Below are positions 3,164-57,939 of a DNA stretch of 64,000 nucleotides, piece by piece (within the stretch, counting starts at the first letter, position 1; every line of letters begins with the position of its first letter). The DNA comes from Acidimicrobiia bacterium (GTDB lineage: Bacteria; Actinomycetota; Acidimicrobiia; Acidimicrobiales; JACDCH01): assembly GCA_052387955.1 (NCBI GenBank), contig JBQTIQ010000064.1, forward strand, positions 6,219-70,218, in the 5' to 3' direction. Below the pieces are notes generated by a model. The model made no database searches, was not told the DNA's origin, and saw nothing but the letters and a program-made list of their open reading frames with translations. Position numbers and translations under genes: made by a program.

Positions 3164-3256
3164 TGCTGGTCGCGTTGCTGGTCGCGTTGCTGGTCGCGTT
3201 CCCCGGCCACGCAGGCCGCTCGTGACCGCGCCTGCGCTGGCGCTCCGGCGCTCGCA
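3164..3256 (+). repeat. REP-like imperfect palindrome, copy a, with its first 12 nt (tgctggtcgcgt) triplicated
   Basis: The unit tgctggtcgcgt occurs at 3164-3175, 3176-3187 and 3188-3199. It is followed by ttccccggccacgcaggccgc..gcgcctgcgctggcgctccggcgctcgca, the same element seen at 22.3, 23.2, 23.3, 25.2 and 25.3 kb. Confidence 0.85.
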
Positions 3257-3431
3257 TCTGCGGCGCCGCGTCAGGGCTCATACCGGCTCCTCGGCGCCGG
3301 GTCGGAGCCCATACGGGCTCCTCGGCGCCGGGTCGGAGCCCATACGGGCTCCTCGGCGCCGGGTCGGAGCCCATACGGGCTCCTCGGCCGGCTCGAAGTT
3401 CATGCCGGCTCTTCGGCGCCGGCGGGCGCCC
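3255..3431. repeat. 31-bp tandem repeat array with three near-perfect central units and decayed flanking units
   Basis: The unit catacgggctcctcggcgccgggtcggagcc occurs at 3279-3309 (1 mismatch), 3310-3340 and 3341-3371. Diverged copies lie at 3255-3278, 3372-3400 and 3401-3431, and the last overlaps the epimerase stop. Each unit contains the stem GGGCTCC..GGAGCCC. Confidence 0.9.
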
Positions 3432-22328: not shown

Positions 22329-22414
22329 CCTGACAGGTGCGCCCGTCTGCCGATGCGAGCGCCGGAGCGAAGGCGCGGTCGGGCGCGGCCTGCGGGGCCG
22401 GGGAACGCAGCCGG
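22329..22414 (-). repeat. REP-like imperfect palindrome, copy b (reverse orientation)
   Basis: The reverse complement reads ccggctgcgttccccggccccgcaggccgcgcccgaccgcgccttcgctccggcgctcgcatcggcagacgggcgcacctgtcagg. Confidence 0.8.
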
Positions 22415-22443
22415 CGTCTGCCTCTCCGGCGGGCCGGCCGGTG

Positions 22444-23190: not shown

Positions 23191-23373
23191 TGCTGGCTGC
23201 GTTCCCCGGCCACGCAGGCCGCGCCCGGCCGCGCCTGCGCTGGCGCTCCGCCGCTCGCACCGCCAGACAGGTACACCCGCCAGGCGCTGGCTGCGTTCCC
23301 CGGCCACGCAGGCCGCGCCCGGCCGCGCCTGCGCTGGCGCTCCGCCGCTCGCACCGCCAGACGGGTGCACTGG
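23191..23373 (+). repeat. REP-like elements, copies c1 and c2 (head-to-tail pair)
   Basis: Copy c1 spans 23191-23277 and copy c2 spans 23285-23373. Both read (t)gctggctgcgttccccggccacgcaggccgcgcccggccgcgcctgcgctggcgctccgccgctcgcaccgccagac(a/g)gg..cac. They lie in the divergent region between the HAD and ppm1 genes. Confidence 0.9.
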
Positions 23374-23500
23374 CCAGGCTCCACCTGGCGTTCACTCGCC
23401 GGACATGACTGGTAGTGGGTACCCGTCGGCGCCTAACTTCGGGCCCGGCCGCGTCACGCTGTCGTGGCATGGCCACCGTGGCGCCGCCCCAAAGACCCTG

Positions 23501-25219: not shown

Positions 25220-25380
25220 TGCTGGCTGCGTTCCCCGGCCACGCATGCCGCGCTTGGCCGCGCCTGCGCTGGCGCTCCGGCGCTCGCAGCTGTGCCGGCG
25301 GCGTCGGGCTGTGCTGGTCGCGTTCCCCGGCCACGCAGGCCGCGTCTGGCCGCGCCTGCGCTGGCGCTTCGGCGCTCGCA
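25220..25380 (+). repeat. REP-like elements, copies d1 and d2 (head-to-tail pair)
   Basis: Copy d1 spans 25220-25288 and copy d2 spans 25312-25380. They lie in the divergent region between the cyclophilin and glycosylase genes. Confidence 0.9.
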
Positions 25381-25467
25381 GCTTTGGTTCGGCGCGCCTT
25401 CGGGTTTGGTGCTCTGGCGGTCGTATCGGTGCCAGAGTTCGGCGGTGCGAACGCGGAGGGAGCAGCG

Positions 25468-26110: not shown

Positions 26111-26165
26111 TTCCGGGCCGCGCCGGCGCTCTCGTTCGCGCCTGCGCTGGCGGTCCGACCGGTGA
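26111..26165 (+). repeat. degenerate REP-like copy e
   Basis: The sequence ttccgggccgcgccggcgctctcgttcgcgcctgcgctggcggtccgaccggtga keeps the gcgcctgcgctggcg core. Its tail (gtccgaccggtga) resembles the 45.5/56.0 kb inverted repeats. Confidence 0.5.
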
Positions 26166-26484
26166 AGCTCAGCCAGTGGCCTCTGGCTTTGCGTCAGCCA
26201 CCACGCTTCATCCGCCGGCGATGCCGGCGACCCGCCCGCGCGAGGCCGCCGACATCAGATGATCGTGAATGCCTGGGCGGCAACCTCGACCATCGGTCCA
26301 CCCCTCTCAACCGCGTCGGTCGGCGAGACGTGGCGGAGAATGCAGCGGTGCGGGCAAAACGGGCCGAACGGCCTACCCCGCGGCCGGTCTCGGGCGCGGA
26401 TCGTGACCGGGTGAACGCGAAGCGGGCGCTCGAGTGCCCGAACCGCCTCGGCGAGCCACGCGCCACCAGTCCTGGCGTGAGCCC

Positions 26485-44552: not shown

Positions 44553-45320
44553 ATGAGCCTCGTCGTCGTCGAACGCCGCCCGCACACGTTGTTGATCGGG
44601 CTGGACCGGCCCGAGAAACGAAACGCCCTCGACCGGGTGCTCGTCGACGAGATCGACACCGTGCTCCGTGACGCGGCACGGGCCGAGCCGGCGGTCGTGG
44701 TCGTCTACTCCCGTATGCCGGGGATGTTCGTCGCTGGAGCCGACCTGCACGAGATGTTCGAGCGGACGTCCGAGGAAGGTTTGCAGGCGATCAACATCGG
44801 TCTCTTCGATCGTCTCGAAGCCCACCGATGGCCGACCATCGCGGTGGTGGACGGCCCCGCCCTCGGGGGCGGCTGCGAGTTCGCCATGGCCTTCGACTTG
44901 CGGGTCGCGTCGGTGCGGGCCCGGTTCGCCCAGCCCGAGCTCAGCCTCGGGCTCATCGCCGGCGCCGGCGGCAACTGGCGGCTACCACAGCTGGTCGGCT
45001 TGTCGTGGGCGCGGCGGATGCTCTACATGGGCGAGTCGCTGGACGCCCAAACAGCGCTGGAGGCCGGCCTGGTCGACCGGGTCGCCCGTGAGCCCGAGGA
45101 GGCCCTCGACGTCGCCCTGGCCGTCGCCGACCAGATCGCCACCCGCTCGTGGCGGGCGGTCGAGCTCACCAAGCTCGCCCTGCGCCAGCACCGGCCGGCG
45201 ACGACCAGCTTCGACATCGTCGCCCAGGGCATGATGCTCGACAGCGCCGACAAGCACGAGCGCATCACCGACTTCTTCGACCGCCAGGCCGCCCGCAAAG
45301 CTCGACCGCCGTCGGGATGA
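44553..45320 (+). CDS. enoyl-CoA hydratase/isomerase (crotonase) family protein
   Basis: ORF 44007..45320 trimmed to ATG 44553 after GGGGGAGGTG. It has the oxyanion-hole region GGGCEFAMAFD. Confidence 0.88.
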   Translation: MSLVVVERRPHTLLIGLDRPEKRNALDRVLVDEIDTVLRDAARAEPAVVVVYSRMPGMFVAGADLHEMFERTSEEGLQAINIGLFDRLEAHRWPTIAVVDGPALGGGCEFAMAFDLRVASVRARFAQPELSLGLIAGAGGNWRLPQLVGLSWARRMLYMGESLDAQTALEAGLVDRVAREPEEALDVALAVADQIATRSWRAVELTKLALRQHRPATTSFDIVAQGMMLDSADKHERITDFFDRQAARKARPPSG

Positions 45321-45350: not shown

Positions 45351-45555
45351 TCATGTGCAGGATGGCAGACGAATCGTTTGGTGGCCACCGCCGGCGGCAC
45401 CCTCCCAGAGGGAGCCCTGGTGCTTGACGACGGCCGGCACGACGTGGCCGTATGGCGCCTCCCGCACGATCCCCGCCCGGCAGCTTCGACAGCCCGAGCT
45501 GAGCCCCGGGGGACAGCCCCAGGCTGGCGGTTGCCGCCTCGCCGAGCGAGGTCAC
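45351..45555 (-). pseudogene. possible frameshifted small ORF starting at the outer edge of the left inverted repeat
   Basis: From GTG 45555 the first ~28 codons (VTSLGEAATASLGLSPGAQLGLSKLPGG) have G/C-rich third positions. From ~45470 that bias moves to another frame (..IVREAPYGHVVPAVVKHQGSLWEGAAGGGHQ.., stop 45351). Family unknown; it weakly resembles LGL-x-PG AbrB/SpoVT-type or Xis-type small DNA binders. Confidence 0.2.
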
Positions 45556-45661
45556 TGGTGCACCATCGCTTGCGATCCCAGGGTGACCGGTCGACGGCGC
45601 GAGCGCCAGCGAGCCGGGCGACGATGGGCCCGGAGGCGCAGCCTCCGAGCATGAACGGTCA
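45550..45661 (-). repeat. left copy of the ~112-115 bp inverted repeat (IR-L)
   Basis: The reverse complement aligns with 56009-56123, from tgaccgt.. to ..atggtgcaccagtgacc. Confidence 0.9.
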
Positions 45662-45726
45662 CGGGCTCCGGGGCTGCTGCTCCAGCGCCCGTGGCGACGC
45701 TGTCGGTGCCGCCCGGTCCGGGCCGA

Positions 45727-47049
45727 TCAGCCGGCTGGTGCCGTTGGGACGACCGTTCCCCGGACTTCGCCCAGCCCCAGGCGGACGCCGCCGCCGATGG
45801 CGGCCGAGCCTCGCAGGATCACCTCGTCACCGTCCTCGAGGAACGTCCTGGTCGCTCCCGATGCCAGGACGATGGGCTCGGACCCGTTCCAGCTCAGCTC
45901 GAGCAGGGACCCCCGCTGGTCTCGCCTCGAGCCCGAGACCGTGCCCGAAGCCACCAGGTCGCCGACCCGGAGGTGGGCGCCGTTGGAAGTGAGGTGGGCC
46001 ACCTGCTGGTCGAGCGTCCAGTACATGGAGGCGAAGTCGGTGGCGCTCAGGCGCTCCTCGGCATCCTGACCGTGCGGCCGCAGCCACATCTCGAGCTGCA
46101 GGTCAAGGGCCAAGGACGACTCACGACGGAGGTGGGGGAGGGGAGGCGGGTCCTGGTCGGGACCGGGCACCCGAGCCGGCGCCAGAGCGTCGAGGGGGAC
46201 CACCCATCCCGAGATCGACGTGGCAAACGACTTGCCCAGGAAGGGCCCCAGGGGCTGGTACTCCCACGCCTGGATGTCCCGGGCACTCCAGTCGTTGACC
46301 AGCACGCAGCCGAAGACATGCTCGGCGACGGCCCCGGCCGGGACCGACCGGCCCCGCTCGCTCGGCTGGCCCACGATGAATCCGACCTCGAGCTCGACGT
46401 CGAGGTGGGTGCTCGGCCCTGTAACCACAGCGCCGTCGGGACCTCGCCGTTGCCCGAAGGGCCGTACCAACGGGGTGCCGGTGACGACCACCGTCCCGGC
46501 CCGGCCGTGGTAGGCCAACGGCACGTGCCGCCAGTTCGCCGGCAACGGGTCGCCGTCGGGCCGCAGCATGCGCCCGACGTTGGTGGCGTGATCGATCGAG
46601 GAGTAGAAGTCGACGTAGTCGGCAACCTCGACCGGCAGGTGCAGCTCGATGGTCGACCGTTCGACGAGGGCGTCCTGAGTGGCGGCGCGTACCTCGGCGG
46701 CGGCATCGCCCCCGGTGGCAAGCAGATCGCTGACCCGCGCCCGGACCGCGGTCCACGTCGAGCGGCCCCGGGCCAGGAGGCGGTTGAGGCTCGGAGCGCG
46801 GAACACCGCCAGCGCGTTGCGGCAGGCATCTTCCAGGAGGCCGGCTTCGGCCACCGCACCGAGGTCGAGGACGTGGTTGCCGATGGCGACCCCGATCCGT
46901 CGGTCGCGGCCAGCGGCAGAGAAGACGCCGTAGGGCAGGCTCTGCACCGGAAAGGAGCTGCCGGTGCTGGCGGGCACCCAGCTCGACCGGGCGGGATCAA
47001 CGGTGGGGTCGGCAGTCAGGCCGTCGATGTCGGCAGCGGACAGGTTCAC
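45727..47049 (-). CDS. fumarylacetoacetase (FAH)
   Basis: It has SSWVPASTGSSFPVQSLPYGVF, typical of the FAH N-terminus, and a C-terminal FAH fold. The start is uncertain (GTG 47049 or ATG 47148). Confidence 0.85.
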   Translation of the reverse strand: MNLSAADIDGLTADPTVDPARSSWVPASTGSSFPVQSLPYGVFSAAGRDRRIGVAIGNHVLDLGAVAEAGLLEDACRNALAVFRAPSLNRLLARGRSTWTAVRARVSDLLATGGDAAAEVRAATQDALVERSTIELHLPVEVADYVDFYSSIDHATNVGRMLRPDGDPLPANWRHVPLAYHGRAGTVVVTGTPLVRPFGQRRGPDGAVVTGPSTHLDVELEVGFIVGQPSERGRSVPAGAVAEHVFGCVLVNDWSARDIQAWEYQPLGPFLGKSFATSISGWVVPLDALAPARVPGPDQDPPPLPHLRRESSLALDLQLEMWLRPHGQDAEERLSATDFASMYWTLDQQVAHLTSNGAHLRVGDLVASGTVSGSRRDQRGSLLELSWNGSEPIVLASGATRTFLEDGDEVILRGSAAIGGGVRLGLGEVRGTVVPTAPAG

Positions 47050-47189
47050 GTCCTCCTGGTATCTGCCGGTGACCGGGCCGACGCAGGCGGAGGCTGTACC
47101 GATGAGTGGAACTTGCGCCTTCCTCGGACCGCACGGGCGACCCATCATGGTCCCGAGGCTCCGGCCCTACTCATCATGACAGCTACCTG

Positions 47190-47525
47190 ATGCCCACGAT
47201 CACCTTCGTCGACCAGCGATTGACCATGGAGTCCCGTCCTGGCGAAGCCATCCTTTCCGCCATCGTCCGCTCGGGCTACAGCCACCGCTACGGGTGTCGC
47301 CGCGGGGGGTGCGGTGTGTGCCGGGCGGTCGTCACCGTAGGACAGGTCACCTATCCGTCGGCAGTGGCCCCTACCGTGCTCACACCCGACGAACGCGAGG
47401 ATGGCCACTGTCTCACCTGTCGGGCCGTCCCCGACGGCGACATCGAGCTGCGGCTTCCCGACGACGACGAGCTTCGCTGCGTGAACACCCTTCTCGCCCG
47501 CATCCTCACCAAGGAGAGAACCTGA
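47190..47525 (+). CDS. plant-type [2Fe-2S] ferredoxin, XylT/DmpQ-like
   Basis: It has the Cys pattern CRRGGCGVC..C and sits immediately upstream of, and overlapping (TGATG), the extradiol dioxygenase. Confidence 0.82.
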   Translation: MPTITFVDQRLTMESRPGEAILSAIVRSGYSHRYGCRRGGCGVCRAVVTVGQVTYPSAVAPTVLTPDEREDGHCLTCRAVPDGDIELRLPDDDELRCVNTLLARILTKERT

Positions 47526-48436
47526 TGGCCGTCATGCGTCTCGGTTACACCCATATCCGCGTCACCGATCTGGCAGAAGCGAAGAAGCACTACAGCCGCA
47601 CGATTGGTATGAACGTGGTGGCGGAGAGCGCCAACCAGGTCCATCTCAAGTGCTGGGACGAGTACGACCACCACTCCCTCGTGATCGAGGAAGGCGGCGT
47701 CGGCCTCGTCAAGCTGGGCTACAAGGTCGAGAAAGCCGACGATCTCGCCGCCTTCGAGTCGCGGGCGCAGCAGTTCGGCGCCATCGTCGAACGGATGGGC
47801 AGCGGCGACAACCTGGCCGTCGGCGACGGCGTTCGCATCGTGCTGCCTTCCGACCACGTGATCGAGCTGTACGCCGAGATGGAGTTCACCGGGACCGACA
47901 CCGGCTGCCTCAACCCCGACCCCTACCCCCGCGACACGTCGGGCATCGGCGTCCCCCGCATCGACCATGCCCTGATCACGGCCGAGGACGTCGAGACCGT
48001 CGAACGGTTCTTCCAAGAGGTGCTCGACTTCCAGGTCACCGAGCGGGTCATCACCGAACCGGTCGACCCGATGCTCATCGGCACGTGGCTCTCGTGCTCG
48101 AACACTCCCCACGACATCGCCTTCGTCAAGGGCCCGAACGGCAAGTTCCACCACTTCGCCTACCTGCTCGAGGACTGGAACGCCATCCTCAAGGCCGGCG
48201 ACCTCTTCGCCATGGACGACGTACCGGTCGACGTCGGCCCCACCCGCCACGGCATCACCCGGGGCACGACGATCTACTTCTTCGACCCGTCCGGCAACCG
48301 CAACGAGGTCTTCGCCGGTGGTTACACCGTCTTCAAGGACTTCCCCTGCATCACCTGGACCGCTGACCAGATCGGCAAGGGGATCTTCTACATCCAGCGC
48401 GAGCTGAACGAGCGCTTCACCACCGTCGTCACCTGA
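47525..48436 (+). CDS. catechol 2,3-dioxygenase (type I extradiol dioxygenase)
   Basis: It has a two-domain VOC fold (RLGYTHIRV, IDHALI, HDIAF, FHHFAY, YFFDPSGNRNE) and is 303 aa long. Confidence 0.93.
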   Translation: MAVMRLGYTHIRVTDLAEAKKHYSRTIGMNVVAESANQVHLKCWDEYDHHSLVIEEGGVGLVKLGYKVEKADDLAAFESRAQQFGAIVERMGSGDNLAVGDGVRIVLPSDHVIELYAEMEFTGTDTGCLNPDPYPRDTSGIGVPRIDHALITAEDVETVERFFQEVLDFQVTERVITEPVDPMLIGTWLSCSNTPHDIAFVKGPNGKFHHFAYLLEDWNAILKAGDLFAMDDVPVDVGPTRHGITRGTTIYFFDPSGNRNEVFAGGYTVFKDFPCITWTADQIGKGIFYIQRELNERFTTVVT

Positions 48437-48524
48437 GCACCGTCGAAGGCCCGTTCCCGCTGAGGTAGGAACGGCCGAGGGGCCGACGTCGCCCGCAGTC
48501 GGCTTCGCATTGGCCGTGGACGCC

Positions 48525-48557
48525 GAGCGCGGGCATCCTTCATCGGTGCCCGCGCTC
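48525..48557. terminator. strong hairpin downstream of the dioxygenase and upstream of the IclR gene
   Basis: GAGCGCGGGCA-tccttcatcgg-TGCCCGCGCTC forms an 11-bp perfect stem. A weaker hairpin, CCGTTCC..GGAACGG, lies at 48451-48474. Confidence 0.5.
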
Positions 48558-48673
48558 GACGTACCTGACGTGCGAGGGCCGCGAGCTCTCCAGGCCGTCG
48601 GCGCGAGCGCGAGCTCGCCCGGCGGCGACGGGTGTGGGGCGCAGCCCCACGGGAAGACCGACCGGTGCTGGCG

Positions 48674-49504
48674 ATGACCGGAAGCACGGGCGCGGCCCGG
48701 CCCGACGAGGTCCGCCTCCAGTCGCTGACCGCGGCGCTGGAACTGCTCAATCGGTTCGCCACCGCCAACGAGATCGGGGTGACCGAGGCCGCCGCCCATC
48801 TCGGCGTGGCCAAGAGCACCGCCCACCGCCTGTTGACGACGTTGGCCGCCTTCGGCTTCGTGGAGCGGACCGTCAACCGGCGCTACCGGCTGGGTGTGCG
48901 CATCTACGAGCTGGGCGAGATCGCGGTGAGCCGACTGGGGCTCCACGAGGTGGCCCTTCCGGTACTCGAGGAGCTGCGCAACGTCTGCGGCGAGACCGTG
49001 CACGTGGCCATCCCCGACGGTGCCGAGGTCGTCTACATCGCCCGCATGGAGAGCCACCAGGGCCTCCGGTTCTCGTCCCGGGTCGGTCGGCGCATGCCCG
49101 CCCACGCCACCAGTTCGGGCAAGGCCATCGCTGCCTTCAACCCCGAGGTGGCCAAGGCGGTGGTGAGCTCACCCCTGCTGCGGCTCACTGGCCGAACGAT
49201 CGTGTCGCCCCAGCTGTTCCTGAGGGCCCTGGCCGATGCCCGCACCGCCGGCTATGCCTGCAGCACCGAGGAAGCCGAGGTGGGCCTGTCGTCGGTTGCC
49301 GCTCCCGTGCTCGACGCCGACGGCGTCGCCATCGCCGCTGTCTCGGTGGCAGGCCCGTCCGAGCGGATCCTCCATGACGAAAGGCTCACCGCCGGACGGG
49401 TCAAGGCCGCCGCCGCCCGCCTGGCCAAGGACCACGCCGCCTGGCTCCCGCCTCGCCGTCGTTCCGCGCTGCGCGCCAGCCGCCCTACCGACGACCGCCG
49501 CTGA
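48674..49504 (+). CDS. IclR-family transcriptional regulator
   Basis: ORF 48632..49504 trimmed to ATG 48674. It has an N-terminal wHTH (EIGVTEAAAHLGVAKSTAHRLLTTL) and an IclR effector domain. Confidence 0.9.
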   Translation: MTGSTGAARPDEVRLQSLTAALELLNRFATANEIGVTEAAAHLGVAKSTAHRLLTTLAAFGFVERTVNRRYRLGVRIYELGEIAVSRLGLHEVALPVLEELRNVCGETVHVAIPDGAEVVYIARMESHQGLRFSSRVGRRMPAHATSSGKAIAAFNPEVAKAVVSSPLLRLTGRTIVSPQLFLRALADARTAGYACSTEEAEVGLSSVAAPVLDADGVAIAAVSVAGPSERILHDERLTAGRVKAAAARLAKDHAAWLPPRRRSALRASRPTDDRR

Positions 49505-49550
49505 GGGGTGAGGAGGGCATGGCCCCCCCACAGGTTGCTGGAAAACGACC

Positions 49551-49579
49551 GACGCCGGGCCCTGTGAGGGCCCGGCGTC
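49551..49579. terminator. bidirectional terminator hairpin
   Basis: GACGCCGGGCCC-tgtga-GGGCCCGGCGTC forms a 12-bp perfect stem between the convergent IclR and monooxygenase beta-subunit genes. Confidence 0.65.
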
Positions 49580-49623
49580 CCTGCCCGCGGCGGAGCGCGG
49601 TCAGGTGAGGTCAGTACCGGTTG

Positions 49624-50607
49624 TCAGGCCAGCAGCTCGTCGGTGCGGGCGTCGGCCGCAGCCTTGATGGCGGAGGCGGCAGCGGCACCGTCGACACCGG
49701 GAAGGGTGGCGGCGAGCGCGTCGACCGCGGCGCCGGCATGGCCCTTCCAGTTGTCGTAGTGGCCCCGGAGGATGTCCTTGTTGGCGGGGGTGTCAGTGAC
49801 GATCACCTTCATGAGATCGGCGCTGAGAGCCCGGTGCCACAGGGCGTCCTCGTTGAGCGAGAAGTGGATAGCGGACAGGAGGCGGTCGCTGTTGGCGGCG
49901 GCGGCCGCGCCGGCGATCTGCTCGTTGATGAGCGGGTCGACGTGGGGCTTGATCACCAGGTGCAGCACGGCGAAGGCCTCACCCAAGTCGTAGGCCACCA
50001 ACGCCCGCTCGATGAGCTCGCGCAGCGGCTGGAACGCCTCGGCGTTTTCCCAGATGCCCTGGTGCTCGGCCGGGTTGCAGGCGCCCCGGCTGGTGTTGAG
50101 CTGCACCGAGCGGTATGCGATCCGCTGGAGCCGGCGCATCTCGTCGGCGGCCTGGAAGGTGCCGCAGTTCTTGATCCGCGACGCGGGGGCGAGGTGGCCG
50201 CAGTAGGCGGCGAGCATCTCGAGCCCGTGGCACGGGTAGCGCAGCGGCGCATAGACGTTGTGCATGTAGGAGAGGTACTCGTCGCTCAGGGCGGCGTCGT
50301 AGTTGGAGTCGTCGATCTCTCGCAGGAGGCCGTCGACCACCGTCTCCTTGCTGTTCTGCAGGGTGTTGTAGCCCCGGTAGGTGGTGCGACGGGGATCGGC
50401 GAACGCCTCCCAGTCCTGCACCTGCAGGTTCGAGTCCTCGCGGTGGGCGTAGGTCCACTCGGCTACGGGGTTGCCCTCGCCGAGCTCGAAGCTGCGGGGG
50501 TAGTCGTACACGAGGCGGGTGCTGACCAGTTCGTACTCGGTCGGCATACGCCGCGACTCGGGGAGCTGGCGGGAGAAGGTCTTGAGGGTGGGTTTTGCGT
50601 CGGCCAT
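49624..50607 (-). CDS. soluble diiron monooxygenase beta subunit (toluene-4-monooxygenase TmoE-like)
   Basis: The 327-aa protein has blocks matching my recollection of TmoE: MPTEYELVSTRLVY, DWEAFADP..YRGYN and YAPLRY..LAPASRIKNCGTFQAADEMRRL. The DEMRR motif has Arg rather than the alpha-type His ligand. Confidence 0.82.
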   Translation of the reverse strand: MADAKPTLKTFSRQLPESRRMPTEYELVSTRLVYDYPRSFELGEGNPVAEWTYAHREDSNLQVQDWEAFADPRRTTYRGYNTLQNSKETVVDGLLREIDDSNYDAALSDEYLSYMHNVYAPLRYPCHGLEMLAAYCGHLAPASRIKNCGTFQAADEMRRLQRIAYRSVQLNTSRGACNPAEHQGIWENAEAFQPLRELIERALVAYDLGEAFAVLHLVIKPHVDPLINEQIAGAAAAANSDRLLSAIHFSLNEDALWHRALSADLMKVIVTDTPANKDILRGHYDNWKGHAGAAVDALAATLPGVDGAAAASAIKAAADARTDELLA

Positions 50608-50619
50608 GTCGTCCTCCTC

Positions 50620-50958
50620 CTATTCGCTCGGGATCTCGGGCTGGGGTTCGTGGGCAAGCCACCACGCCGCGCCGTCGGACGTCATCGAGACCTTGCCCGA
50701 GAACGAGGACATGATGACCTCGAGCTCGCCCGGCCACCGGAGCTCACGACCGAGGACTTCTTCGACCTGGCCCTTGGTCACGACGCACTTGTTCGGCGAC
50801 CAGACGCGGATGTAGGCACCGGCGTCGTCGGTAACGACACCTTCGTTGTGGGCCTCGATGGCCTCGACGATGGCCTGGCCTACCGCGGTCACCTGGACCA
50901 CAGGGCCGACCCCGGTCTCGATTGCGGCCGCCCTGGCCTCAGCTTCTGCTGTGCTCAT
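50620..50958 (-). CDS. monooxygenase effector/coupling protein (MmoB/DmpM/TmoD family)
   Basis: ORF 50620..51054 trimmed to ATG 50958 (MSTAEAE). Motifs are GVGPVV, AYIRV, VEEVLGR and IMSSFSG. Confidence 0.8.
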   Translation of the reverse strand: MSTAEAEARAAAIETGVGPVVQVTAVGQAIVEAIEAHNEGVVTDDAGAYIRVWSPNKCVVTKGQVEEVLGRELRWPGELEVIMSSFSGKVSMTSDGAAWWLAHEPQPEIPSE

Positions 50959-51136
50959 TCCATACCTTTCGATTGGTGACGAAGAACTTCGCCGGGCGCG
51001 ACGCGGACGACGGTCCCCAACGCGGACGACGCAACGAATCGAGGCAGCAGACAACCGGGTTGACCCCCTTACCGACGCCGCTCCGACCTCATGTCGGAGT
51101 TGGTCACGGCAACCCAGGTGCCGGTGCCCTTCGGGA

Positions 51137-51394
51137 TCAGGCGGCCGGGGCGACCTGGCGGATGGTGAAGAGATCGCTGTAGCCGAGGCCAGCCTCTTCG
51201 ATCGTCTGGGCAGGATCGAGGAACTCGCCGGCTTCGTTGTAGATCTGGAACTCGCCCCCGTTGTCGGGGATGCGTAGCCCGAGGACCCAGGTGGGGAACT
51301 GATCGAGAAGGCTCTGAACAGTGAGGTCCGGCATGGTGATGATCACCAGGCGCAGGAAGTCACCCTCGAACCAGCCGTTCAACGGCATGATCAT
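51137..51394 (-). CDS. TmoB-like small monooxygenase subunit
   Basis: The 85-aa protein (MIMPLNGWFEGDFLRLVII..EEAGLGYSDLFTI) resembles the 84-aa T4MO B protein in size and pattern. GGAGGAG lies 9 nt upstream of the ATG. Confidence 0.6.
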   Translation of the reverse strand: MIMPLNGWFEGDFLRLVIITMPDLTVQSLLDQFPTWVLGLRIPDNGGEFQIYNEAGEFLDPAQTIEEAGLGYSDLFTIRQVAPAA

Positions 51395-51563
51395 TGTGCT
51401 ATTTCTCCTCCGTATCGACGTACATACGTCTTACCAACCGGGGGAGCGGAGGCGTATTGGCGCGCGACCCTTCCCCGGGCTTGCTGATGATGAAGCGGCC
51501 TCCTCCGAAGTCGTTCAACGGTGGGCGCACTATACAACACGAGGCATCGCCGTGGGAAAGGTC

Positions 51564-51586
51564 CATGTTCCAGGATCTGGAACATG
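51564..51586. promoter_or_regulatory. perfect 10-bp inverted repeat CATGTTCCAG-gat-CTGGAACATG
   Basis: It lies in the lower-GC, 354-bp divergent region between the TmoB-like gene and the CHRD gene, and is a candidate operator. Confidence 0.4.
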
Positions 51587-51748
51587 TCCGGAGCAGTCGG
51601 AGCGACGAAAACCGCAGTTCGGCGCCATTGTCAGCCGTCCCGGAGGCCGGGACGAGGTACCCCATGAAGGGGCTGGGGCATCCGTGCGCGGCAAGGCTCC
51701 GGTGGCACTGCGCGTGCGGGCACGACCGTATTGGGTAAGACTCCGCCC

Positions 51749-52291
51749 ATGCGCTCAAGCATCATTGCCCGGGCCTTGTTGGCATGCTCCCTCCTGTTCT
51801 TCGCCGGCTGTGGCGACGACGACGACGACGGTGCCGTCAGCACCGGGTCGTCGAACACGGAGAGCCCGACGATCCCGCCCACGACCGCACCGGCCGCCGG
51901 GTCGGACGGCTCGGAGGGCCCGTCGAGCGACGATCCCTACGAGGCTCAACTGATGCTCTCCGGCCTCGCCGAGGTCCCCGGCCCTGGAAGCGCGGGAATG
52001 GCCTCCGCCGGCATCACCTATGACGGCGACGAGCTCTGTTTCGCCTTCGAGACCGACGGCGTCGGTGCCGTCACCGCCGGCCACATCCACGTCGGCGCCG
52101 CCAACGTCGCCGGACCGGTGGTGGTCAACTTCCAGCTCACGACCTCCGAGGACGGCCCGGTCGACGAGCGGTGCCTCCCCGACGACGAGAAGATCGCCGG
52201 GGTCTTCGCCGACCCGGGAGCCCACTACGTCAACCTCCACACCGCCGAGTTCCCCGATGGAGCGGTGCGGGCCCAGCTGCCGGGCCGATAG
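51749..52291 (+). CDS. CHRD-domain lipoprotein
   Basis: Trimmed to ATG 51749 (MRSSIIARALLACSLLFFAGC lipobox). A low-complexity linker is followed by CHRD-like HIHVGAANVAGPVV and HYVNLHT. Confidence 0.75.
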   Translation: MRSSIIARALLACSLLFFAGCGDDDDDGAVSTGSSNTESPTIPPTTAPAAGSDGSEGPSSDDPYEAQLMLSGLAEVPGPGSAGMASAGITYDGDELCFAFETDGVGAVTAGHIHVGAANVAGPVVVNFQLTTSEDGPVDERCLPDDEKIAGVFADPGAHYVNLHTAEFPDGAVRAQLPGR

Positions 52292-52378
52292 GCCGGTCCG
52301 CTCGCCTGACGACGACGGTCGAACCGGCGCCGTCGGGGCACGGCCCGAGCCTGAACACACCCCAGCAGGGCTGAACGA

Positions 52379-53626
52379 GTGGCAGCGGCGCAACTACAGG
52401 CGCTGGCCGACGCCACGCCGGCGTCGCGGGACCGCTACGTCGACTTCCTCCGGGCCACGAGCATCCTGGTCGTCGTGGTCGGCCACTGGACGATCGCCGT
52501 GATCCACTGGGACGACGGCGTCATCCGCTCGACCAGCGCCATCGGCCAGGCCCCGGGGCTGTGGTTGGCAACGTGGGTCTTCCAGGTGATGCCCGTCTTC
52601 TTCTTCGTCGGCGGGTACTCCAACTTCGTCGCCTACGCGTCGGCCCGGCGGCGCCACCAGACGGCGGTCGACTTCGTACGCACCCGCGCCCGCCGGCTCC
52701 TGGTGCCCTCCCTGGCACTGGTCGCGGTGTGGGCCGTCGTTCAAACGGGGCTGCACTTCACCGCTACCGGCGCCCCCACCGGCCCGAAGCTCGGTGGCCT
52801 GGTCGTGCTGAGGGGTGTCCGCCCGCCGGGCCAGACGATCCCGTTCGGCCCGCTGTGGTTCCTCGCCGCCTATCTCGTCGTAGTGTGCATCGCCCCGCTC
52901 ACGGTCGCCCTCCACCGGCGCTTCCGCTGGTGGGCCCCCGCCGTCCTGGCCGCCGGCGCGGTCCTGGCCGACGTGGCCGGCTTCATCGGCGGGCTGTCCG
53001 GTGCCCGCTACCTCAACGTGGTGTTCGTCTTCCTCCTGCCCCACCAGTTGGGCCACTTCTACGGCGACGGGTCCGCCACCCGTTGGCCCCGGTACGCGTT
53101 GGCGGCGATGGCGACGGGTGGCCTCGCCGGCCTCGTGCTGCTGACCAACGCCTGGCCGTTCCGCCCGGCGGGAGCGACCCGCTTCGACTGGTTCCCGGGT
53201 ATCGGCCACTACCCGCGCAGCATGCTCGGGACCGACGTCGAAACGGTCTCCAACGCCTACCCGCCGACGTTGTGCTTCCTGTTGGTCGGTCTCTGGCTCA
53301 TCGGGCTGGTGCTGCTGTTACGGCCCCGGGTCAGCCAATGGCTCCAGCGGCCGGGGCCGTGGCGGGCCACCATCGCCGGCAACGCCCGGATCATGACCCT
53401 CTTCCTCTGGCACATGACCGCCTACCTCGTGGCCATCCTGGTGCTGTGGCCGTTGGGTTTCGGCCGCCAGGACGAGCCCACCGCCCGCTGGTGGTTGGAA
53501 CGACCGTTGTGGGTCCTGGTTCCGGCGGTCGTGCTGGTCGGGCTGGTCATGATCTTCGGGCGCTTCGAAGCACAGGGCCGGCGCCAAGCGGCCACCCCGG
53601 GGCATCCGTCAAGTGAGCACCGGTGA
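52379..53626 (+). CDS. acyltransferase family 3 membrane protein
   Basis: It has the N-terminal motif DFLRATSILVVVVGHW and about 10 TM spans. Confidence 0.82.
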   Translation: MAAAQLQALADATPASRDRYVDFLRATSILVVVVGHWTIAVIHWDDGVIRSTSAIGQAPGLWLATWVFQVMPVFFFVGGYSNFVAYASARRRHQTAVDFVRTRARRLLVPSLALVAVWAVVQTGLHFTATGAPTGPKLGGLVVLRGVRPPGQTIPFGPLWFLAAYLVVVCIAPLTVALHRRFRWWAPAVLAAGAVLADVAGFIGGLSGARYLNVVFVFLLPHQLGHFYGDGSATRWPRYALAAMATGGLAGLVLLTNAWPFRPAGATRFDWFPGIGHYPRSMLGTDVETVSNAYPPTLCFLLVGLWLIGLVLLLRPRVSQWLQRPGPWRATIAGNARIMTLFLWHMTAYLVAILVLWPLGFGRQDEPTARWWLERPLWVLVPAVVLVGLVMIFGRFEAQGRRQAATPGHPSSEHR

Positions 53627-53644
53627 TAATCTCCCTTATCACCG
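53621..53644. terminator. AT-rich hairpin spanning the acyltransferase stop
   Basis: CGGTGATAA-tctccc-TTATCACCG forms a 9-bp perfect stem. Confidence 0.45.
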
Positions 53645-53660
53645 ATGTGGCCTTGACGGC

Positions 53661-53800
53661 CTCGGCTCGGGCGCCGCGGGCGACGGCCACATCGTTGACA
53701 AGGCCGCGGTCCAGATGACGCTCGGCTCGGGCGCCGCGGGCGCCGGCCACATCGTTGACAAGGCCGCGGTCCAGATGACGCCCGGCTCGGGCGCCGCCAA
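53661..53800. repeat. 60-bp tandem direct repeat, about 2.3 copies
   Basis: Units lie at 53661-53720 and 53721-53780 (2 differences), with a partial third unit from 53781. Unit: ctcggctcgggcgccgcgggcg(a/c)cggccacatcgttgacaaggccgcggtccagatgacg. The array lies between convergent genes. Confidence 0.9.
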
Positions 53801-53823
53801 CGACATGCCGGCACGGGTGACCC

Positions 53824-54222
53824 TTACCGGGGCCGATGCTCGGTCCCGCGGCCCGGGGTGATGAACAGGGCATCGCCGGGTTCGTGCACGTCGGCGGTGT
53901 GCCACACGCCGGGCGGGTTGATGATCGCGTGGCCGGCCTCGAGCGCGACCCGACGCTCGTGCCCGTCGACGTCCTGGATGAGCTCGGCCCGACCCGAGAG
54001 CAGGACGACGACCTCCTCGCCGGCCGGGTGGCGTTCCCAGGTGTCCCACGAGGCCGCGAGGTGGCCGAGGACGACGAGGCGGCCGTCGTCCCCGTCCACT
54101 TCGAACCGCTGGTCGTAGGCGTCGAGGTACTCGGCCGACCACTGGAAGTCGGGCAACGGTGTCGCCGTCGGCCCTCGGCCCAGGTGGATGTAGGTCGTTC
54201 GCAGGTCGAAGGTTTCGTTCAC
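53824..54222 (-). CDS. cupin-domain protein
   Basis: ORF 53824..54285 trimmed to GTG 54222. It has cupin-like strands EEVVVLLSGRAELI and INPPGVWHTA. Confidence 0.65.
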   Translation of the reverse strand: MNETFDLRTTYIHLGRGPTATPLPDFQWSAEYLDAYDQRFEVDGDDGRLVVLGHLAASWDTWERHPAGEEVVVLLSGRAELIQDVDGHERRVALEAGHAIINPPGVWHTADVHEPGDALFITPGRGTEHRPR

Positions 54223-54367
54223 GGCCCCCAGGCTGCCCGTTCGTGCATGACCTGTATTGGACGGATGGGAACGAAGCCTGCCCACCGCCTGTCCTCATTC
54301 AAAAGGCAGCCCTTGTGCTACAGAATAGGACTGCCTAACGTACAGCGCCCGAACGAGGAGGCCTTCT

Positions 54368-55801
54368 TTGTCGAACGACATCCGTATGCGCTGGCGACGT
54401 GGCACCGCCTGTCTCACGGCGATGGCGGCGCTGACCGGACTGGCCGCCTGCGGCTCCGACGATCCGCCTGCAGCGTCGTCGTCGGCCTCGTCCGACGTTG
54501 ACAGCGGGCCCACCGCCAGCGCATCGAGCGGTCCGGCGGTGAGCTCGGCGGTCACGCCCGTGAGCCTCTCCGACGACGACGACCGCCTGCTCGGGGTGAC
54601 CTACGACGATGCCGGCACCCTCTACGCGTCGGGTTGGGCAGCCACCGGCGACGACCAGGCCATGGCCGCGGTCCGTTTCGGCGACGACGGCGAGCCCGAT
54701 CCCACCTTCGGTACCGACGGGGTGGCGACCATCAACGTGGCTTCGGGCGGGAAGGCGGCCGAGCTGGCCCGATCGATCGTCGTGCAGTCCGACGGCAAGG
54801 TTGTCATCGCCGGCCCGGCCGAGCACGACCCGAGTGCGGCCGGCGACGCTGCCCGCGACACCGACATCGCATTGGCCCGCTTCGACCGCGCCGGCCAACT
54901 CGACCCGAGCTTCGGCCAGTCCGGCATCGCCCGTTTCGACCTGAGCACGGGCGTCGCCGACGGGGACAGCTTCGTCGGCGACACCGCCTGGGGACTGTCC
55001 GCTCTCGACGACGACCGGCTGGTGGTGGTGGCGGCCAAGGTCGGCGCCGACCCTGGGGGCGACCGCGACTTCGCCGTAATGCGCCTCACCCCCGAAGGCG
55101 CCGCTGATCCCAGCTTCGGCACCGAGGGCGTTTTCGACCTCGATGTCGGCGCCGACAGCGGGGACAGCCCCCGGGAGGCGACGGTGCTGCCCGACGGCAA
55201 GCTGCTCGTCAGCGGCTATTCGTCCGATGCCGACGACGTGGTGCGGGCCGTGCTGTTCCGGCTCAGCGCCGACGGCCAGCTCGACCGGACCTTCGGTACC
55301 GACGGCGTCACCACGGCCCAGCTCCTCGGGCAGGTGACCGAGGCCTACGCCGCGGCGGTGATCGGCGACCACATCCTCACCGCCGGCTACGGCAAGGAAG
55401 CCGAGGAGGACAAGGTCGACATGATCATCGGCAACTTCACCATCGACGGCGCCGTCGACACCGGTCGCGGTGAGGACGGTCTCGTCCAGGTCGACGTGGC
55501 CGGCGAGGACGACCGGGGCCGAGACCTGGTCGCCCTGCCCAACGGCGACGTGATGGTCGTCGGCAGCGGCAAGACCTCGGCCGACAACATCGACGCCATG
55601 GTGATGCGGCTGACCGCCGCCGGAGACGTCGACACCGGCTACGGCCCCGAGGGCTTCCAGCTGTTCGAGCTCGGCGGGCCCGAGGACTCGTTCTTCAGCG
55701 TGGCGGTGTCGCCCGACGGGTCGGAGGTGGCCGTCGTCGGCTACGTCGGCCAGGGCGATGACGGCAACGACGACGGGGTGCTGCTGCTGCTCGAACCTTG
55801 A
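54368..55801 (+). CDS. secreted lipoprotein with delta-60-type beta-propeller repeats
   Basis: It has the lipobox LTGLAAC. The motif D(P/R)(S/T)FG(T/Q)(D/E/S)G recurs about 6 times, spaced ~55-65 aa apart. Confidence 0.72.
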   Translation: MSNDIRMRWRRGTACLTAMAALTGLAACGSDDPPAASSSASSDVDSGPTASASSGPAVSSAVTPVSLSDDDDRLLGVTYDDAGTLYASGWAATGDDQAMAAVRFGDDGEPDPTFGTDGVATINVASGGKAAELARSIVVQSDGKVVIAGPAEHDPSAAGDAARDTDIALARFDRAGQLDPSFGQSGIARFDLSTGVADGDSFVGDTAWGLSALDDDRLVVVAAKVGADPGGDRDFAVMRLTPEGAADPSFGTEGVFDLDVGADSGDSPREATVLPDGKLLVSGYSSDADDVVRAVLFRLSADGQLDRTFGTDGVTTAQLLGQVTEAYAAAVIGDHILTAGYGKEAEEDKVDMIIGNFTIDGAVDTGRGEDGLVQVDVAGEDDRGRDLVALPNGDVMVVGSGKTSADNIDAMVMRLTAAGDVDTGYGPEGFQLFELGGPEDSFFSVAVSPDGSEVAVVGYVGQGDDGNDDGVLLLLEP

Positions 55802-55895
55802 ACCGGGGTCGGCCGGGTGAGCCCGGCGCCCGCCGTTGAGCGGAGCACGCGTAGCACTCGCATCTGGTCCATGGTCGCCCCCCCGGCGAGTGCCT

Positions 55896-55926
55896 GGTCC
55901 GTAGCCGGTCCGATCGGCTACGGACC
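55896..55926. terminator. strong hairpin downstream of the lipoprotein gene
   Basis: GGTCCGTAGCCG-gtccgat-CGGCTACGGACC forms a 12-bp perfect stem. Confidence 0.6.
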
Positions 55927-56008
55927 GGGCGGCGCCAGCTTGGTCGCGGCTGCGGTCGTCGACGCGCAGTGGTGATAACCGCGGGCCGGCGCTTAGCATC
56001 GTCGGTCA

Positions 56009-56123
56009 TGACCGTGCTTGCTCGGGGGCTGCGCCCCCGGGCCCCATCGTCGCCGGGCTCGCTGGCGCTCGCGCCGTCGACCGGTCACGGGTGGGAATCG
56101 CAACCGATGGTGCACCAGTGACC
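56009..56123 (+). repeat. right copy of the ~112-115 bp inverted repeat (IR-R)
   Basis: It aligns with the reverse complement of 45550-45661 and ends on the GTG-ACC start of the recombinase. Confidence 0.9.
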
Positions 56124-57173
56124 GTGGTCGACCCTCGCCGCTCTCCCGGCGACACCCGACCGGGCCCGTCACTGGCAGTCCTGGCCGAGGACTGGTTGGC
56201 AGCCCGTTCCGCCGCCTCCCGGTCGGACCCGACCAACTCGGACCGGGCTCGGCGCACGGACCTGTGCCGGATCGGCCGTACCCTCCAGGCCGCCTCCGGC
56301 GCTACCACCGCCGACGGACCGATGTCGCTCGACAACGACTGCGGTCCCGTCCGTCTCGGCGACCTGTCGGTCGACGCCCTCGCCGCCATGATCGGCGAGT
56401 TGCGCCGGCGCTACGAGCCGGCCACGGTCGAACGAACGGTGTCGACGCTGCGAGGCTTCACCCGCTGGCTGGCCCGCCGGGGCCACCTTGGCCGCGACCC
56501 CTGTGACGACGACACCGTCAGCGCCGGCCGGCGGCGAGCCGAGCCAGACGGGCCTCTGCCCTTCCATGCCTTTTCGTCCGCCGACGTGGACGCACTGCTG
56601 TCGGCCGCGGCCAACCCGGCTGCCGGCGCCCGCAGTGCGTGGGCCGCACGTGACGTCGCCATCATCTCCACCCTCGCCGGTACCGGTCTGCGAGCCGGCG
56701 AGCTCGCCGCCCTCCGGGTCAAGGACCTCGACGAGACCGTCGAGCGGCCCCTGTTGCGGGTGGTGCGAGGAACCAAGGGCGGGCGGCGTCGCGACATTCC
56801 TGTCCCTCGGGCCACCGTCGCCGTCGTCCACGACTATGCCGGCGAGCGGGCCCAACGGGCCGCCGCCGAGCCCGCCCTCGCCGCGAAACCTGGCGGCCCC
56901 CTGTTCGTACGGTCCGATGGCACCGGCCTCAACCAACAATGGCTCGACCGGCTCACACGACGCTGTGCCGCCGCCGCCCACGTTCATCTGCCCGGTGACG
57001 CCGCCACCCACGCCTACCGGCACCATTACGGCGTGCAGCTCGCACTCCGGGGTGTCCCGGTGCCGGTGATCCAGCAACTGATGGGCCACGTCGACCCCCG
57101 TACCACTTCCATCTACACCCGGGCCGCGGCCCGCGACCTCGTCGACCCCCTCGACGATGCCGGCTGGTTGTGA
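56118..57173 (+). CDS. tyrosine recombinase / phage-type integrase
   Basis: The catalytic signature is present: R in TGLRAGELAAL, HxxR in THAYRHHYG, and H..Y in LMGHVDPRTTSIYTR. The start is GTG 56118 or GTG 56091, both inside IR-R. Confidence 0.88.
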   Translation: MTVVDPRRSPGDTRPGPSLAVLAEDWLAARSAASRSDPTNSDRARRTDLCRIGRTLQAASGATTADGPMSLDNDCGPVRLGDLSVDALAAMIGELRRRYEPATVERTVSTLRGFTRWLARRGHLGRDPCDDDTVSAGRRRAEPDGPLPFHAFSSADVDALLSAAANPAAGARSAWAARDVAIISTLAGTGLRAGELAALRVKDLDETVERPLLRVVRGTKGGRRRDIPVPRATVAVVHDYAGERAQRAAAEPALAAKPGGPLFVRSDGTGLNQQWLDRLTRRCAAAAHVHLPGDAATHAYRHHYGVQLALRGVPVPVIQQLMGHVDPRTTSIYTRAAARDLVDPLDDAGWL

Positions 57174-57215
57174 GCGCCGGCGCCTGGTCCGCGAGCCGGC
57201 CCGAGGGCCCGCCCG

Positions 57216-57767
57216 CTATCGCCCCGCCCGCTCCCGGGCCAGGAACAAGCCGATGATCGTCTTGGAGTCGGTCAGCTCACCCGACGCCACCAGGGCGACG
57301 ACGTCGTCGAGGGGCACCCGCTCGACCGTCATGGCCCGCTCCTCGGCGCCGACCGGCGCCGCCGGCACCTCGGTGAGGTCACGGCCGAGGTAGATGTCGC
57401 ACCGTTCGTCGGAACAGCCCGGTGACGTCACGAACGACGTCATCAGCTCCAGGCGCCCAGCCCGCAAGCCGACCTCCTCGCCCAACTCTCGCTGCGCGGT
57501 GGCCACCGGCTCCTCACCCTCCTGGTCACGGATGCCGGCCGGGATCTCGAGCAGGACGGCATCGAGAGCGGGACGGTACTGGCGCACGAGCACGGCCCTG
57601 CCCTCGTCGTCGACGGCGACGACCGCCACCGCTCCCGGGTGACGGATGAGGTCACGGTCGAAGCGCTCCCCGTCGGGCGCCCGGAAGGCCGCCGCCACCA
57701 GGCTGAAGACACGGCCCTCGAAGAGGGCCCGTTCGGTGAGCCTGGCGAACCCGGCGGCGTCCCCCAC
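57216..57767 (-). CDS. NUDIX hydrolase (ADP-ribose pyrophosphatase-like)
   Basis: It has the Nudix box GIRDQEGEEPVATAQRELGEEVG. I trimmed to GTG 57767 because the track's upstream extension uses many A/T-ending codons. Confidence 0.85.
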   Translation of the reverse strand: MGDAAGFARLTERALFEGRVFSLVAAAFRAPDGERFDRDLIRHPGAVAVVAVDDEGRAVLVRQYRPALDAVLLEIPAGIRDQEGEEPVATAQRELGEEVGLRAGRLELMTSFVTSPGCSDERCDIYLGRDLTEVPAAPVGAEERAMTVERVPLDDVVALVASGELTDSKTIIGLFLARERAGR

Positions 57768-57939
57768 GGTCGGGCTTAGTGTCCCGTCAGGTTGGTTCGT
57801 TGGATATCTCGGCCGGGCCGGGCGTCGCCGACAAGTACACAGGTCGAAAGCGCAATCGGGCATCTGCGGTGAGACCGAGGACGCCGCCAGCGGCGCTCAG
57901 ACCGAGTCGAAATACCGACATGACCAGCCGGACCGGGCA

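Follow-up and report, generated by a model that had tools for sequence, protein, structure and literature searches.

Two short inverted repeats beside a tyrosine recombinase gene in an Acidimicrobiia genome are probably separate insertions of a MIRU-like element

The subject of this analysis is a pair of short inverted repeats, here called L and R, in a stretch of 64,000 nucleotides (nt) from an Acidimicrobiia bacterium (contig JBQTIQ010000064.1, positions 6,219 to 70,218), which we refer to as the window. L occupies 45556..45662 on the minus strand and R occupies 56008..56117 on the plus strand, directly in front of a gene for a tyrosine recombinase. Our results make it very probable that L and R represent independent copies of a short (107 to 110 nt), non-coding repeat of the type known as mycobacterial interspersed repetitive units (MIRUs), that their opposite orientation and the adjacency of R to the recombinase gene are coincidental, that the repeats are not recombination sites, and that the 10.4 kilobases (kb) between them are ordinary chromosome. 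MIRUs are described, in passages of PMC12548453 (citing Supply et al. 1997), as mobile short repeats at start codons whose internal open reading frame (ORF) is coupled to the gene by a 4-nt overlap, which lowers the cost of insertion. L and R would represent a new MIRU-like family in an Acidimicrobiia genome, MIRU-like here referring to architecture and to a comparison with MIRUs as they have been described. Elements of the MIRU type, which insert at a start codon and keep the gene alive through an upstream ORF with a 4-nt overlap, appear to exist well beyond Mycobacterium.

The repeat pair was first noticed in an earlier reading of the letters alone (the original prediction), which described two copies identical at about nine positions in ten with three small insertions or deletions (indels). 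Alignment bears this out: the reverse complement of 45550-45661 and the interval 56009-56123 are identical in 104 of 115 columns of a global alignment with three indels of 1 nt each, the identity by blastn is 90.4% (E 5e-38), and the longest perfect match is about 33 nt. The indels total 3 nt, so both copies keep a length of the form 3n+2. The 18-mer GATGGTGCACCAGTGACC occurs exactly twice in the window, in L and in R, against 0.07 occurrences expected by chance. The two palindromes described earlier, TGGTGCACCA and GACCGGTC, are found in both copies. R is 110 nt long and begins with ATGACCG (56008-56014), which is the first copy of its duplicated target; the second copy, GTGACCG at 56118..56124, includes the recombinase start codon and was placed by blastn and by alignment to a sister lineage. 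L is 107 nt long and begins with GTGACCG on the minus strand, and the second copy of its target, GTGACC at 45550..45555 (minus strand), lies at its 3' end, as seen in the sequence and by comparison with a sister contig. A profile of the family recovers both copies with nhmmer (E 1e-24 for R and 5e-21 for L).

Both copies sit at the sequence (A/G)TGACC, written RTGACC below, with the target duplicated on both sides, and the sister lineage has a precise empty site at each place. Three independent Logan contigs (L001-L003) carry a homolog of the recombinase (P0001, 92% identical) in the order Cupin-DUF5122-recombinase-NUDIX, as in the window, and R is missing from the orthologous site in all of them. 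There the DNA runs uninterrupted as ..CGTCGGCC|GTGACCGCGG.. (also read as ..GGCC|GTGACCGCGG..), and across the R site it reads ..TTAGCATCGTCGGCC|GTGACCGCGGTCGACC.. unbroken, where the window has 110 extra nt with ATGACCG at their start and GTGACCG after them. The L site is represented by contig L099, which carries a homolog of the FAA hydrolase next to L (P0105, 91% identical) and in which L is absent. The spacer downstream of this gene reads ..GCACC|GTGACC|TCGG.. where the window has L with GTGACC on both sides. With blastn, the 7 to 11 nt around RTGACC align to either side of each insert, namely 2272-2278 of L001 to both flanks of R and 2042-2052 of L099 to both flanks of L. Between the sister lineage and the window the flanks show 88-90% nucleotide identity, over 4 kb and 1.4 kb; the genes at both junctions keep their order and orientation, and only the orientation of the window was observed at either junction in the sister contigs. 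As judged from these comparisons, L and R are either discrete insertions here or precise losses in the sister lineage. Since each copy has an RTGACC duplication of its own, they appear to be separate insertions, and since interior and exterior DNA are joined in the sister lineage without the repeats, the 10.4 kb was not brought in as one repeat-bounded unit.

These empty sites bear directly on the original prediction, whose leading reading was that the repeats bound an invertible segment. The adjacent tyrosine recombinase would then flip the 10.4 kb between L and R, in the manner of Fim, Hin or shufflon systems. The appeal of this idea is clear, given that the copies are inverted and 90% identical, that both hold palindromes and that one of them abuts a tyrosine recombinase. 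The sister lineage, however, has the recombinase and the same junction orientation with neither repeat, and the separate RTGACC duplication of each repeat marks separate insertions. Homologous units are found at many loci without a recombinase, more distant recombinase homologs are without such repeats upstream, and the interior, in which there is no promoter or cassette switch, consists of nine ordinary genes; related aromatic-catabolism genes extend beyond L on the left. We therefore regard inversion by the recombinase as highly improbable. The same gene order without repeats, and scattered copies with no link to recombinases, were the two observations that the original prediction itself named as speaking against its idea, and both were made here. 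Its description of the region as cargo bracketed by the repeats fares no better, the junctions between interior and exterior already existing in the sister lineage. A composite mobile element with L and R as terminal inverted repeats and the 10.4 kb as its cargo would explain why the copies are inverted and point outward and why the interior genes are catabolic and look accessory, but the FAA hydrolase end and the Cupin/DUF5122 end are joined to the same exterior DNA in the sister lineage, the duplications flank each copy singly rather than the 10.4-kb unit as a whole, and there is no transposase inside; we give this explanation practically no chance. It is also improbable that L and R matter mainly as passive substrates of RecA-dependent homologous recombination, with an occasional inversion in which the recombinase takes no part. 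A shared stretch of about 110 nt, inverted and 90% identical, could serve in this way, but the longest perfect stretch is only about 33 nt, the inverted arrangement is not seen in the sister lineage, and such inversion would be a side effect and not a function. A tempting false positive is thus removed, as there is neither a phase-variable 10-kb switch nor a bounded cargo at this locus, and inverted copies of MIRU-like elements can mimic recombinase sites.

The preferred reading, that L and R are insertions of a MIRU-like element, draws further strength from relatives of the repeats in other genomes. We searched GTDB representative genomes with a 20-mer from the core of the element, and most matches were at chance level. 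Copies in metagenome-assembled genomes (MAGs) were chosen by an exact match to this 20-mer, and matches to the 81-nt body of the element, 86-95% identical, are found at eight loci (L014, L019, L034, L035, L056, L068, L072 and L087) in seven Actinomycetota MAG assemblies. Shorter and more diverged matches (57-58 nt, 86%) at L046 and L094, in one further assembly, were treated as sister subfamilies. In the MAGs the element occurs either as one unit of 92 nt or as a tandem array that repeats every 92 nt: L068 has two units, and L019 has five, four of them with the exact 20-mer and the first unlike the others at its 5' end. Copy number varies, with two units at L014 and one in its ortholog L072; L and R are single units and not arrays. 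Every MAG unit begins with ATGAC, and the final unit is followed directly by the ATGACC or GTGACC start of an ORF in 8 of 8 arrays (ORFs of 72-500 amino acids (aa), with a third-position G+C of 0.81-0.95). The genes downstream of family members are unrelated to one another and encode an oxidoreductase-like protein, a small Cys-rich protein, membrane proteins and the recombinase. No recombinase homolog was found by tblastn in about 170 loci bearing the element or its tail; such homologs appeared only in loci retrieved through the recombinase's own homologs. In viral contigs the core had a single chance match and the tail had none. Within the window a third, diverged copy, M (about 48565..48653, minus strand; nhmmer E 9e-4), belongs to the sister subfamily of the L046 type and has the hairpin GTGGGGC-TGC-GCCCCAC. 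M lies in the interval between L and R, antisense to the IclR gene and directly upstream of it. The most likely start of this IclR gene is ATGACCG at 48674, which is the target motif of the family, and not the first GTG (48632); M fills the sequence upstream. A related observation is a tandem array of four 86-nt units at L094:1797-2140, which has the body of the family (hairpin and core) with other ends and no RTGACC; the body module is therefore found as well in elements that have no coupling to start codons.

From its own ATG onward, a 92-nt unit forms a short ORF of 31 codons, as in the unit at L034, with a TGA that overlaps the following ATG. The unit lengths seen are 65, 68, 92, 104, 107, 110 and 122 nt, all of which are 3n+2, and a length of this form makes the ORF of a unit end on the next RTGA. 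R has the same layout: it creates an upstream ORF of 37 codons (56008..56121, plus strand; MTVLARGLRPRAPSSPGSLALAPSTGHGWESQPMVHQ followed by the stop codon), which ends in CAG-TGA over the GTG of the recombinase, the TGA and the start codon sharing the 4 nt GTGA. A 4-nt overlap of this kind is present in all 8 MAG arrays as well. The original prediction had noted an ORF open through each copy with peptides that are unlike in the middle, and a TGA overlapping GTGACC at the end of both, and each point was confirmed: an open frame also runs through L, and in spite of the frame shifts within the element the two peptides rejoin at ..MVHQ before the stop. We take the overlap of TGA and GTG as the key clue, since it is, by analogy, the translational-coupling signature of MIRU-type elements. 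L differs in its surroundings, lying between the stop codons of two convergent genes with no gene downstream. The small decayed ORF that was earlier thought to follow it is no gene start; in the sister lineage the DNA at this place is spacer and the 3' tail of the gene on the opposite strand. Annotation pipelines are likely to misplace start codons or to call spurious small ORFs at sites of this kind.

Our interpretation of this arrangement is as follows. When the element inserts on a start codon, the original start signals would come to drive the short ORF within the element, and this ORF would stop at a TGA overlapping the displaced start codon (RTGA). By termination-reinitiation, ribosomes would start anew on the gene and open the hairpin over its start codon, and with the expression of the gene preserved the insertion would be tolerated. 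At R this would have happened to the gene of the tyrosine recombinase, while L would have landed in a convergent spacer with no gene to couple, its 3' hairpin decaying afterwards. We take both to be members of a subfamily that is active in this Acidimicrobiia lineage. The window contains 123 occurrences of RTGACC, counting both strands, so the bias of surviving copies toward start codons would reflect either targeting or selection.

The hairpins of the element are conserved and covary. Hairpin 1, at 56023..56039 in R (CGGGGGC-TGC-GCCCCCG) and at 45631..45647 on the minus strand in L (CGGAGGC-TGC-GCCTCCG), has 7 pairs, with 96% of cells paired across 11 variants of the family; 3 of the 7 pairs change on both sides, which represents only about two independent events. 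The difference between L and R is compensatory, in agreement with the earlier observation of GGAGGC/GCCTCC in L and GGGGGC/GCCCCC in R. A second hairpin involves the target. The 3' end of the 92-nt unit (GGTCAcGAGCnnnGCTCaTGACC) folds into a hairpin in which the following start codon forms the 3' arm (-15.2 kcal/mol, z -3.7), and the tail stem at L087 carries a compensatory change from GAGC/GCTC to GGGC/GCCC. In R, folding pairs GGTCAC..GGTG with CACC.GTGACC at 56083..56123 and places the recombinase start codon inside the stem (-22.5 kcal/mol, z -1.9); stronger homologous hairpins occur in other units and families (z from -3.7 to -8.6). The 3' hairpin of L is not formed (z +0.2), and its loss fits the decay of a copy that has no gene to couple. 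Members of the family have in common an RTGACC of their own at the 5' end, a conserved G+C hairpin, a 3' arm pairing with the following RTGACC and a length of 3n+2.

Conserved hairpins directly 5' of a gene, with a start codon sequestered in a stem, could also point to a cis-regulatory RNA (a leader, riboswitch or operator) common to two genes. The original prediction had offered a shared 5' leader or operator as one alternative, and of this the position of R at a gene start stands, while L is not at a gene start. L is in fact without any downstream gene, the downstream genes of the family are unrelated, and Rfam gave only chance-level matches, both at gathering thresholds over the whole window and at relaxed thresholds for R and an array of L019. 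Presence or absence in close relatives and tandem changes in copy number fit a repeat element rather than a dedicated regulator. Taken together, these results leave little probability for a conserved regulatory RNA.

Several points weigh against the reading of L and R as MIRU-like insertions. Gain here and precise loss in the sister lineage would look the same without an outgroup. L does not lie at a gene start, and the association with start codons is consequently not universal. The copies in the 64-kb window are L, R and the diverged M only, and the selection of MAG copies by an exact 20-mer makes the apparent conservation of the core partly a matter of ascertainment and thereby inflated. 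The metagenome scan, queried with the 18-mer from the tail of L and R, brought up no second element of the L/R type, and the combination of the L/R body with the L/R tail was found nowhere else. No transposase, and no Y1/HUH transposase in particular, was seen among about 50 ORFs of the window that were scanned. Folding of the whole element was no better than that of shuffled sequence (z about -1), so that only the sub-hairpins are informative, and at 71% G+C an open frame of 36-37 codons is not uncommon. The steps that we infer are translation of the upstream ORF, reinitiation at the GTG at 56118, the role of the hairpin that occludes the start codon, and leaderless or other initiation at the ATG of the element. 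A scan for E. coli-type promoters and terminators around L and R returned nothing; TAGCAT, 8 nt before the start and kept in L001, is accordingly no more than a possible leaderless promoter, read by eye and unconfirmed.

The comparison with MIRUs rests on dispersed short units, tandem variation in copy number, a sense 4-nt overlap at the gene start (L excepted), and presence or absence in relatives. Like MIRUs as presented in passages of PMC12548453, the elements are intergenic units of 40-120 nt, single or in tandem with variable copy number, which are inserted in sense orientation at start codons, have a unit ORF that overlaps the downstream start by 4 nt (ATGA or GTGA), and are without a transposase of their own. 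They differ in their hosts, which are Acidimicrobiia and uncultured Actinomycetota and not Mycobacterium. They differ also in the clear empty sites with duplicated RTGACC, in the covarying G+C hairpin, in the 3' hairpin that pairs with the target or start codon, and in a 3' tail that is a module common to several otherwise different bodies. The L/R family brings to MIRU-type elements clean pairs of filled and empty sites, a target of 6-7 nt, covarying hairpins and the 3n+2 rule. Our search of the literature for the tail sequence, or for MIRU-like elements in other Actinobacteria, found nothing relevant.

Other small elements share part of this architecture. Repetitive extragenic palindromic (REP) sequences and bacterial interspersed mosaic elements (BIMEs), which are associated with REP-associated tyrosine transposases (RAYTs), and the hairpin-bearing miniature inverted-repeat transposable elements (MITEs) derived from IS200/IS605 are likewise small, non-autonomous and hairpin-bearing, have no terminal inverted repeats and use a short specific insertion sequence. 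The internal segment of L and R that is complementary to the target recalls the guide-target pairing of IS608. IS200/IS605 elements do not duplicate their target, whereas L and R have RTGACC on both sides; the GTAG signature of REP sequences is not evident in L and R, and a strict 3n+2 length and coupling to start codons are not features of REP sequences. Correia (NEMIS) elements of Neisseria and similar MITEs are non-autonomous elements of about 100-150 nt with a short target duplication, often lie next to genes and alter their expression. L and R resemble them as non-autonomous insertions on the 100-nt scale with a short target duplication near genes. In Correia elements the terminal inverted repeats are 26 bp long and the target is TA, and these elements work through promoters and RNase III sites, whereas the L/R element is proposed to act by an upstream ORF that overlaps the start codon. 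Inverted repeats beside a tyrosine recombinase are reminiscent of the segments switched by FimB/E or of shufflons, and there is a loose likeness to the attC sites of integrons, which are folded hairpins with the crossover point at the hairpin foot. Unlike these, our repeats are missing from relatives that keep the recombinase, no alternative orientation was seen, and there are no GTTRRRY core sites.

The 3' tail of L and R connects them to other repeats. In metagenome loci (L102-L174), at least three other repeat families share ..GATGGTGCACCA|GTGACC as their 3' end: family A, with tandem units of 65 or 68 nt; family B, whose body matches the 94-nt REP-like repeats of the window; and family C, with units of 122 nt. 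Examples of loci with this tail are L125:1-220, L138:60-240, L116:4500-4640 and L132:1900-2010. The GTGACC at which each of the three families ends is also the beginning of the next unit or of a gene. Families A and C carry, upstream, a GGTCACTGGTGCnCC exactly complementary to the tail and start codon (z -8.6 and -4.5). Taken together, the families that share the tail resemble one modular superfamily of repeats, found in soil metagenomes and associated with start codons. We tentatively suggest, while holding it rather doubtful, that the L/R element belongs to a large undescribed superfamily of modular mini-elements of soil Actinomycetota, in which differing bodies carry one 3' module (..GGTGCACCA). 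Pairing of that module, or of the GGTCA of the 92-nt unit, with the RTGACC target would account for the choice of start codons, for example by hairpin- or guide-directed cleavage of a single strand as in IS200/IS605 or RAYT systems, and the 3n+2 length would keep the host gene coupled. The complementarity of the 3' arm to the target suggests, as speculation, movement directed by a hairpin or guide. Were the superfamily real, its natural pairs of filled and empty sites would offer a handle on the mechanism of MIRU-type mobility.

The recombinase appears to be the neighbor of the element and not its partner. It is a protein of 351 aa encoded at 56118..57173 on the plus strand (Pfam Phage_integrase, E 1.6e-23), and we corrected its start to the GTG at 56118, which gives it the length of the 92%-identical P0001. 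From sequence comparison we take it to be Xer-like but not a true XerC/XerD. The assignment as a XerC/XerD (dif) recombinase was rejected on NCBIfam scores of 101-108 bits against cut-offs of 330-335, 26% identity to the canonical XerD of relatives, and a gene convergent with NUDIX rather than co-directional. The integron integrase IntI was rejected as well (TIGR02249, 51 bits against a cut-off of 265), the unit ends being RTGACC/GGTCA and not the attC cores RYYYAAC/GTTRRRY. Related Acidimicrobiia (L180 and L181) have a co-directional block recN-pyrG-NUDIX-xerD-dksA...scpAB. The window matches this block up to NUDIX; synteny then breaks (56118-57863), with the convergent non-Xer recombinase in the place of xerD, as is also the case in the sister lineage; xerD, dksA, tyrS and scpAB were not found in the other 57 kb of the window. 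The recombinase looks like an element- or island-type enzyme at an old synteny breakpoint, which would be older than the repeat insertions because the sister lineage has the same arrangement. Homologs that are 45-50% identical (L175-L179) lie beside giant RHS/YD-shell (polymorphic toxin-like) genes or in long co-directional arrays of small ORFs, neighborhoods that hint at a family of cassette or toxin-locus recombinases. Between the DUF5122 gene and the recombinase, 55896-55926 is a perfect 12-7-12 palindrome (GGTCCGTAGCCG-GTCCGAT-CGGCTACGGACC) that is kept in the sister lineage. Its geometry is that of a recombinase core site or of an intrinsic terminator lacking a T tract; it was considered as the true site of the recombinase but is present only once in the window.

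Because the window has a G+C content of 71%, genes were called by third-position G+C and Pfam. To the left of L lie a DJ-1/PfpI gene and then an enoyl-CoA hydratase gene ending at 45320. To its right are the genes for FAA hydrolase (45727-47148, minus strand), an extradiol dioxygenase and then the IclR regulator, followed by three subunits of a truncated multicomponent monooxygenase (49624-51394, minus strand), a CHRD protein, an acyltransferase, a Cupin protein and, to the left of R, a DUF5122/delta-60 propeller protein (54368-55801). To the right of the recombinase are NUDIX and then pyrG, both on the minus strand. The pyrG product is 100% identical to P0225 from an Acidimicrobiia MAG and the recombinase has no exact match in the protein collection, a difference that misannotation of its start may explain. 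The monooxygenase cluster is partial: it has genes for a TmoB-like protein, an MmoB/DmpM effector and a beta subunit, but the window has none for an alpha subunit, a ferredoxin or a reductase. A single stop codon separates the effector gene from the beta gene, which share a reading frame. The gap between the acyltransferase and Cupin genes (53627-53823) has a coding-frame signal unlike that of either neighbor, and a 60-nt tandem duplication, 98% identical and with a partial third copy, is located there (53661-53840).

A separate family in the window consists of 94-nt REP-like repeats, partly in tandem, at 3189-3282, 22366-22420 (reverse complement), 23192-23379, 25221-25406 and 26127-26192. 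Their body, ..TTCCCCGGCCACGCAGGCCG..GCTGGCGCTC.., matches that of family B, and the copies in the window are without the GGTGCACCA tail and do not abut start codons. L and R share with them only a short motif (GCTGGCGCTC..), with no clear homology by alignment. The alternative in the original prediction that L and R are a subfamily of REP-like elements was essentially right, in that they belong to a dispersed family of short hairpin-bearing repeats and share their tail with a family that has the body of the 94-nt repeat. Beside one of the 94-nt repeats, and near a tRNA-Gly (2657-2752), four tandem units of 31 nt (CGGCGCCGGGTCGGAGCCCATACGGGCTCCT) occupy 3261-3384.

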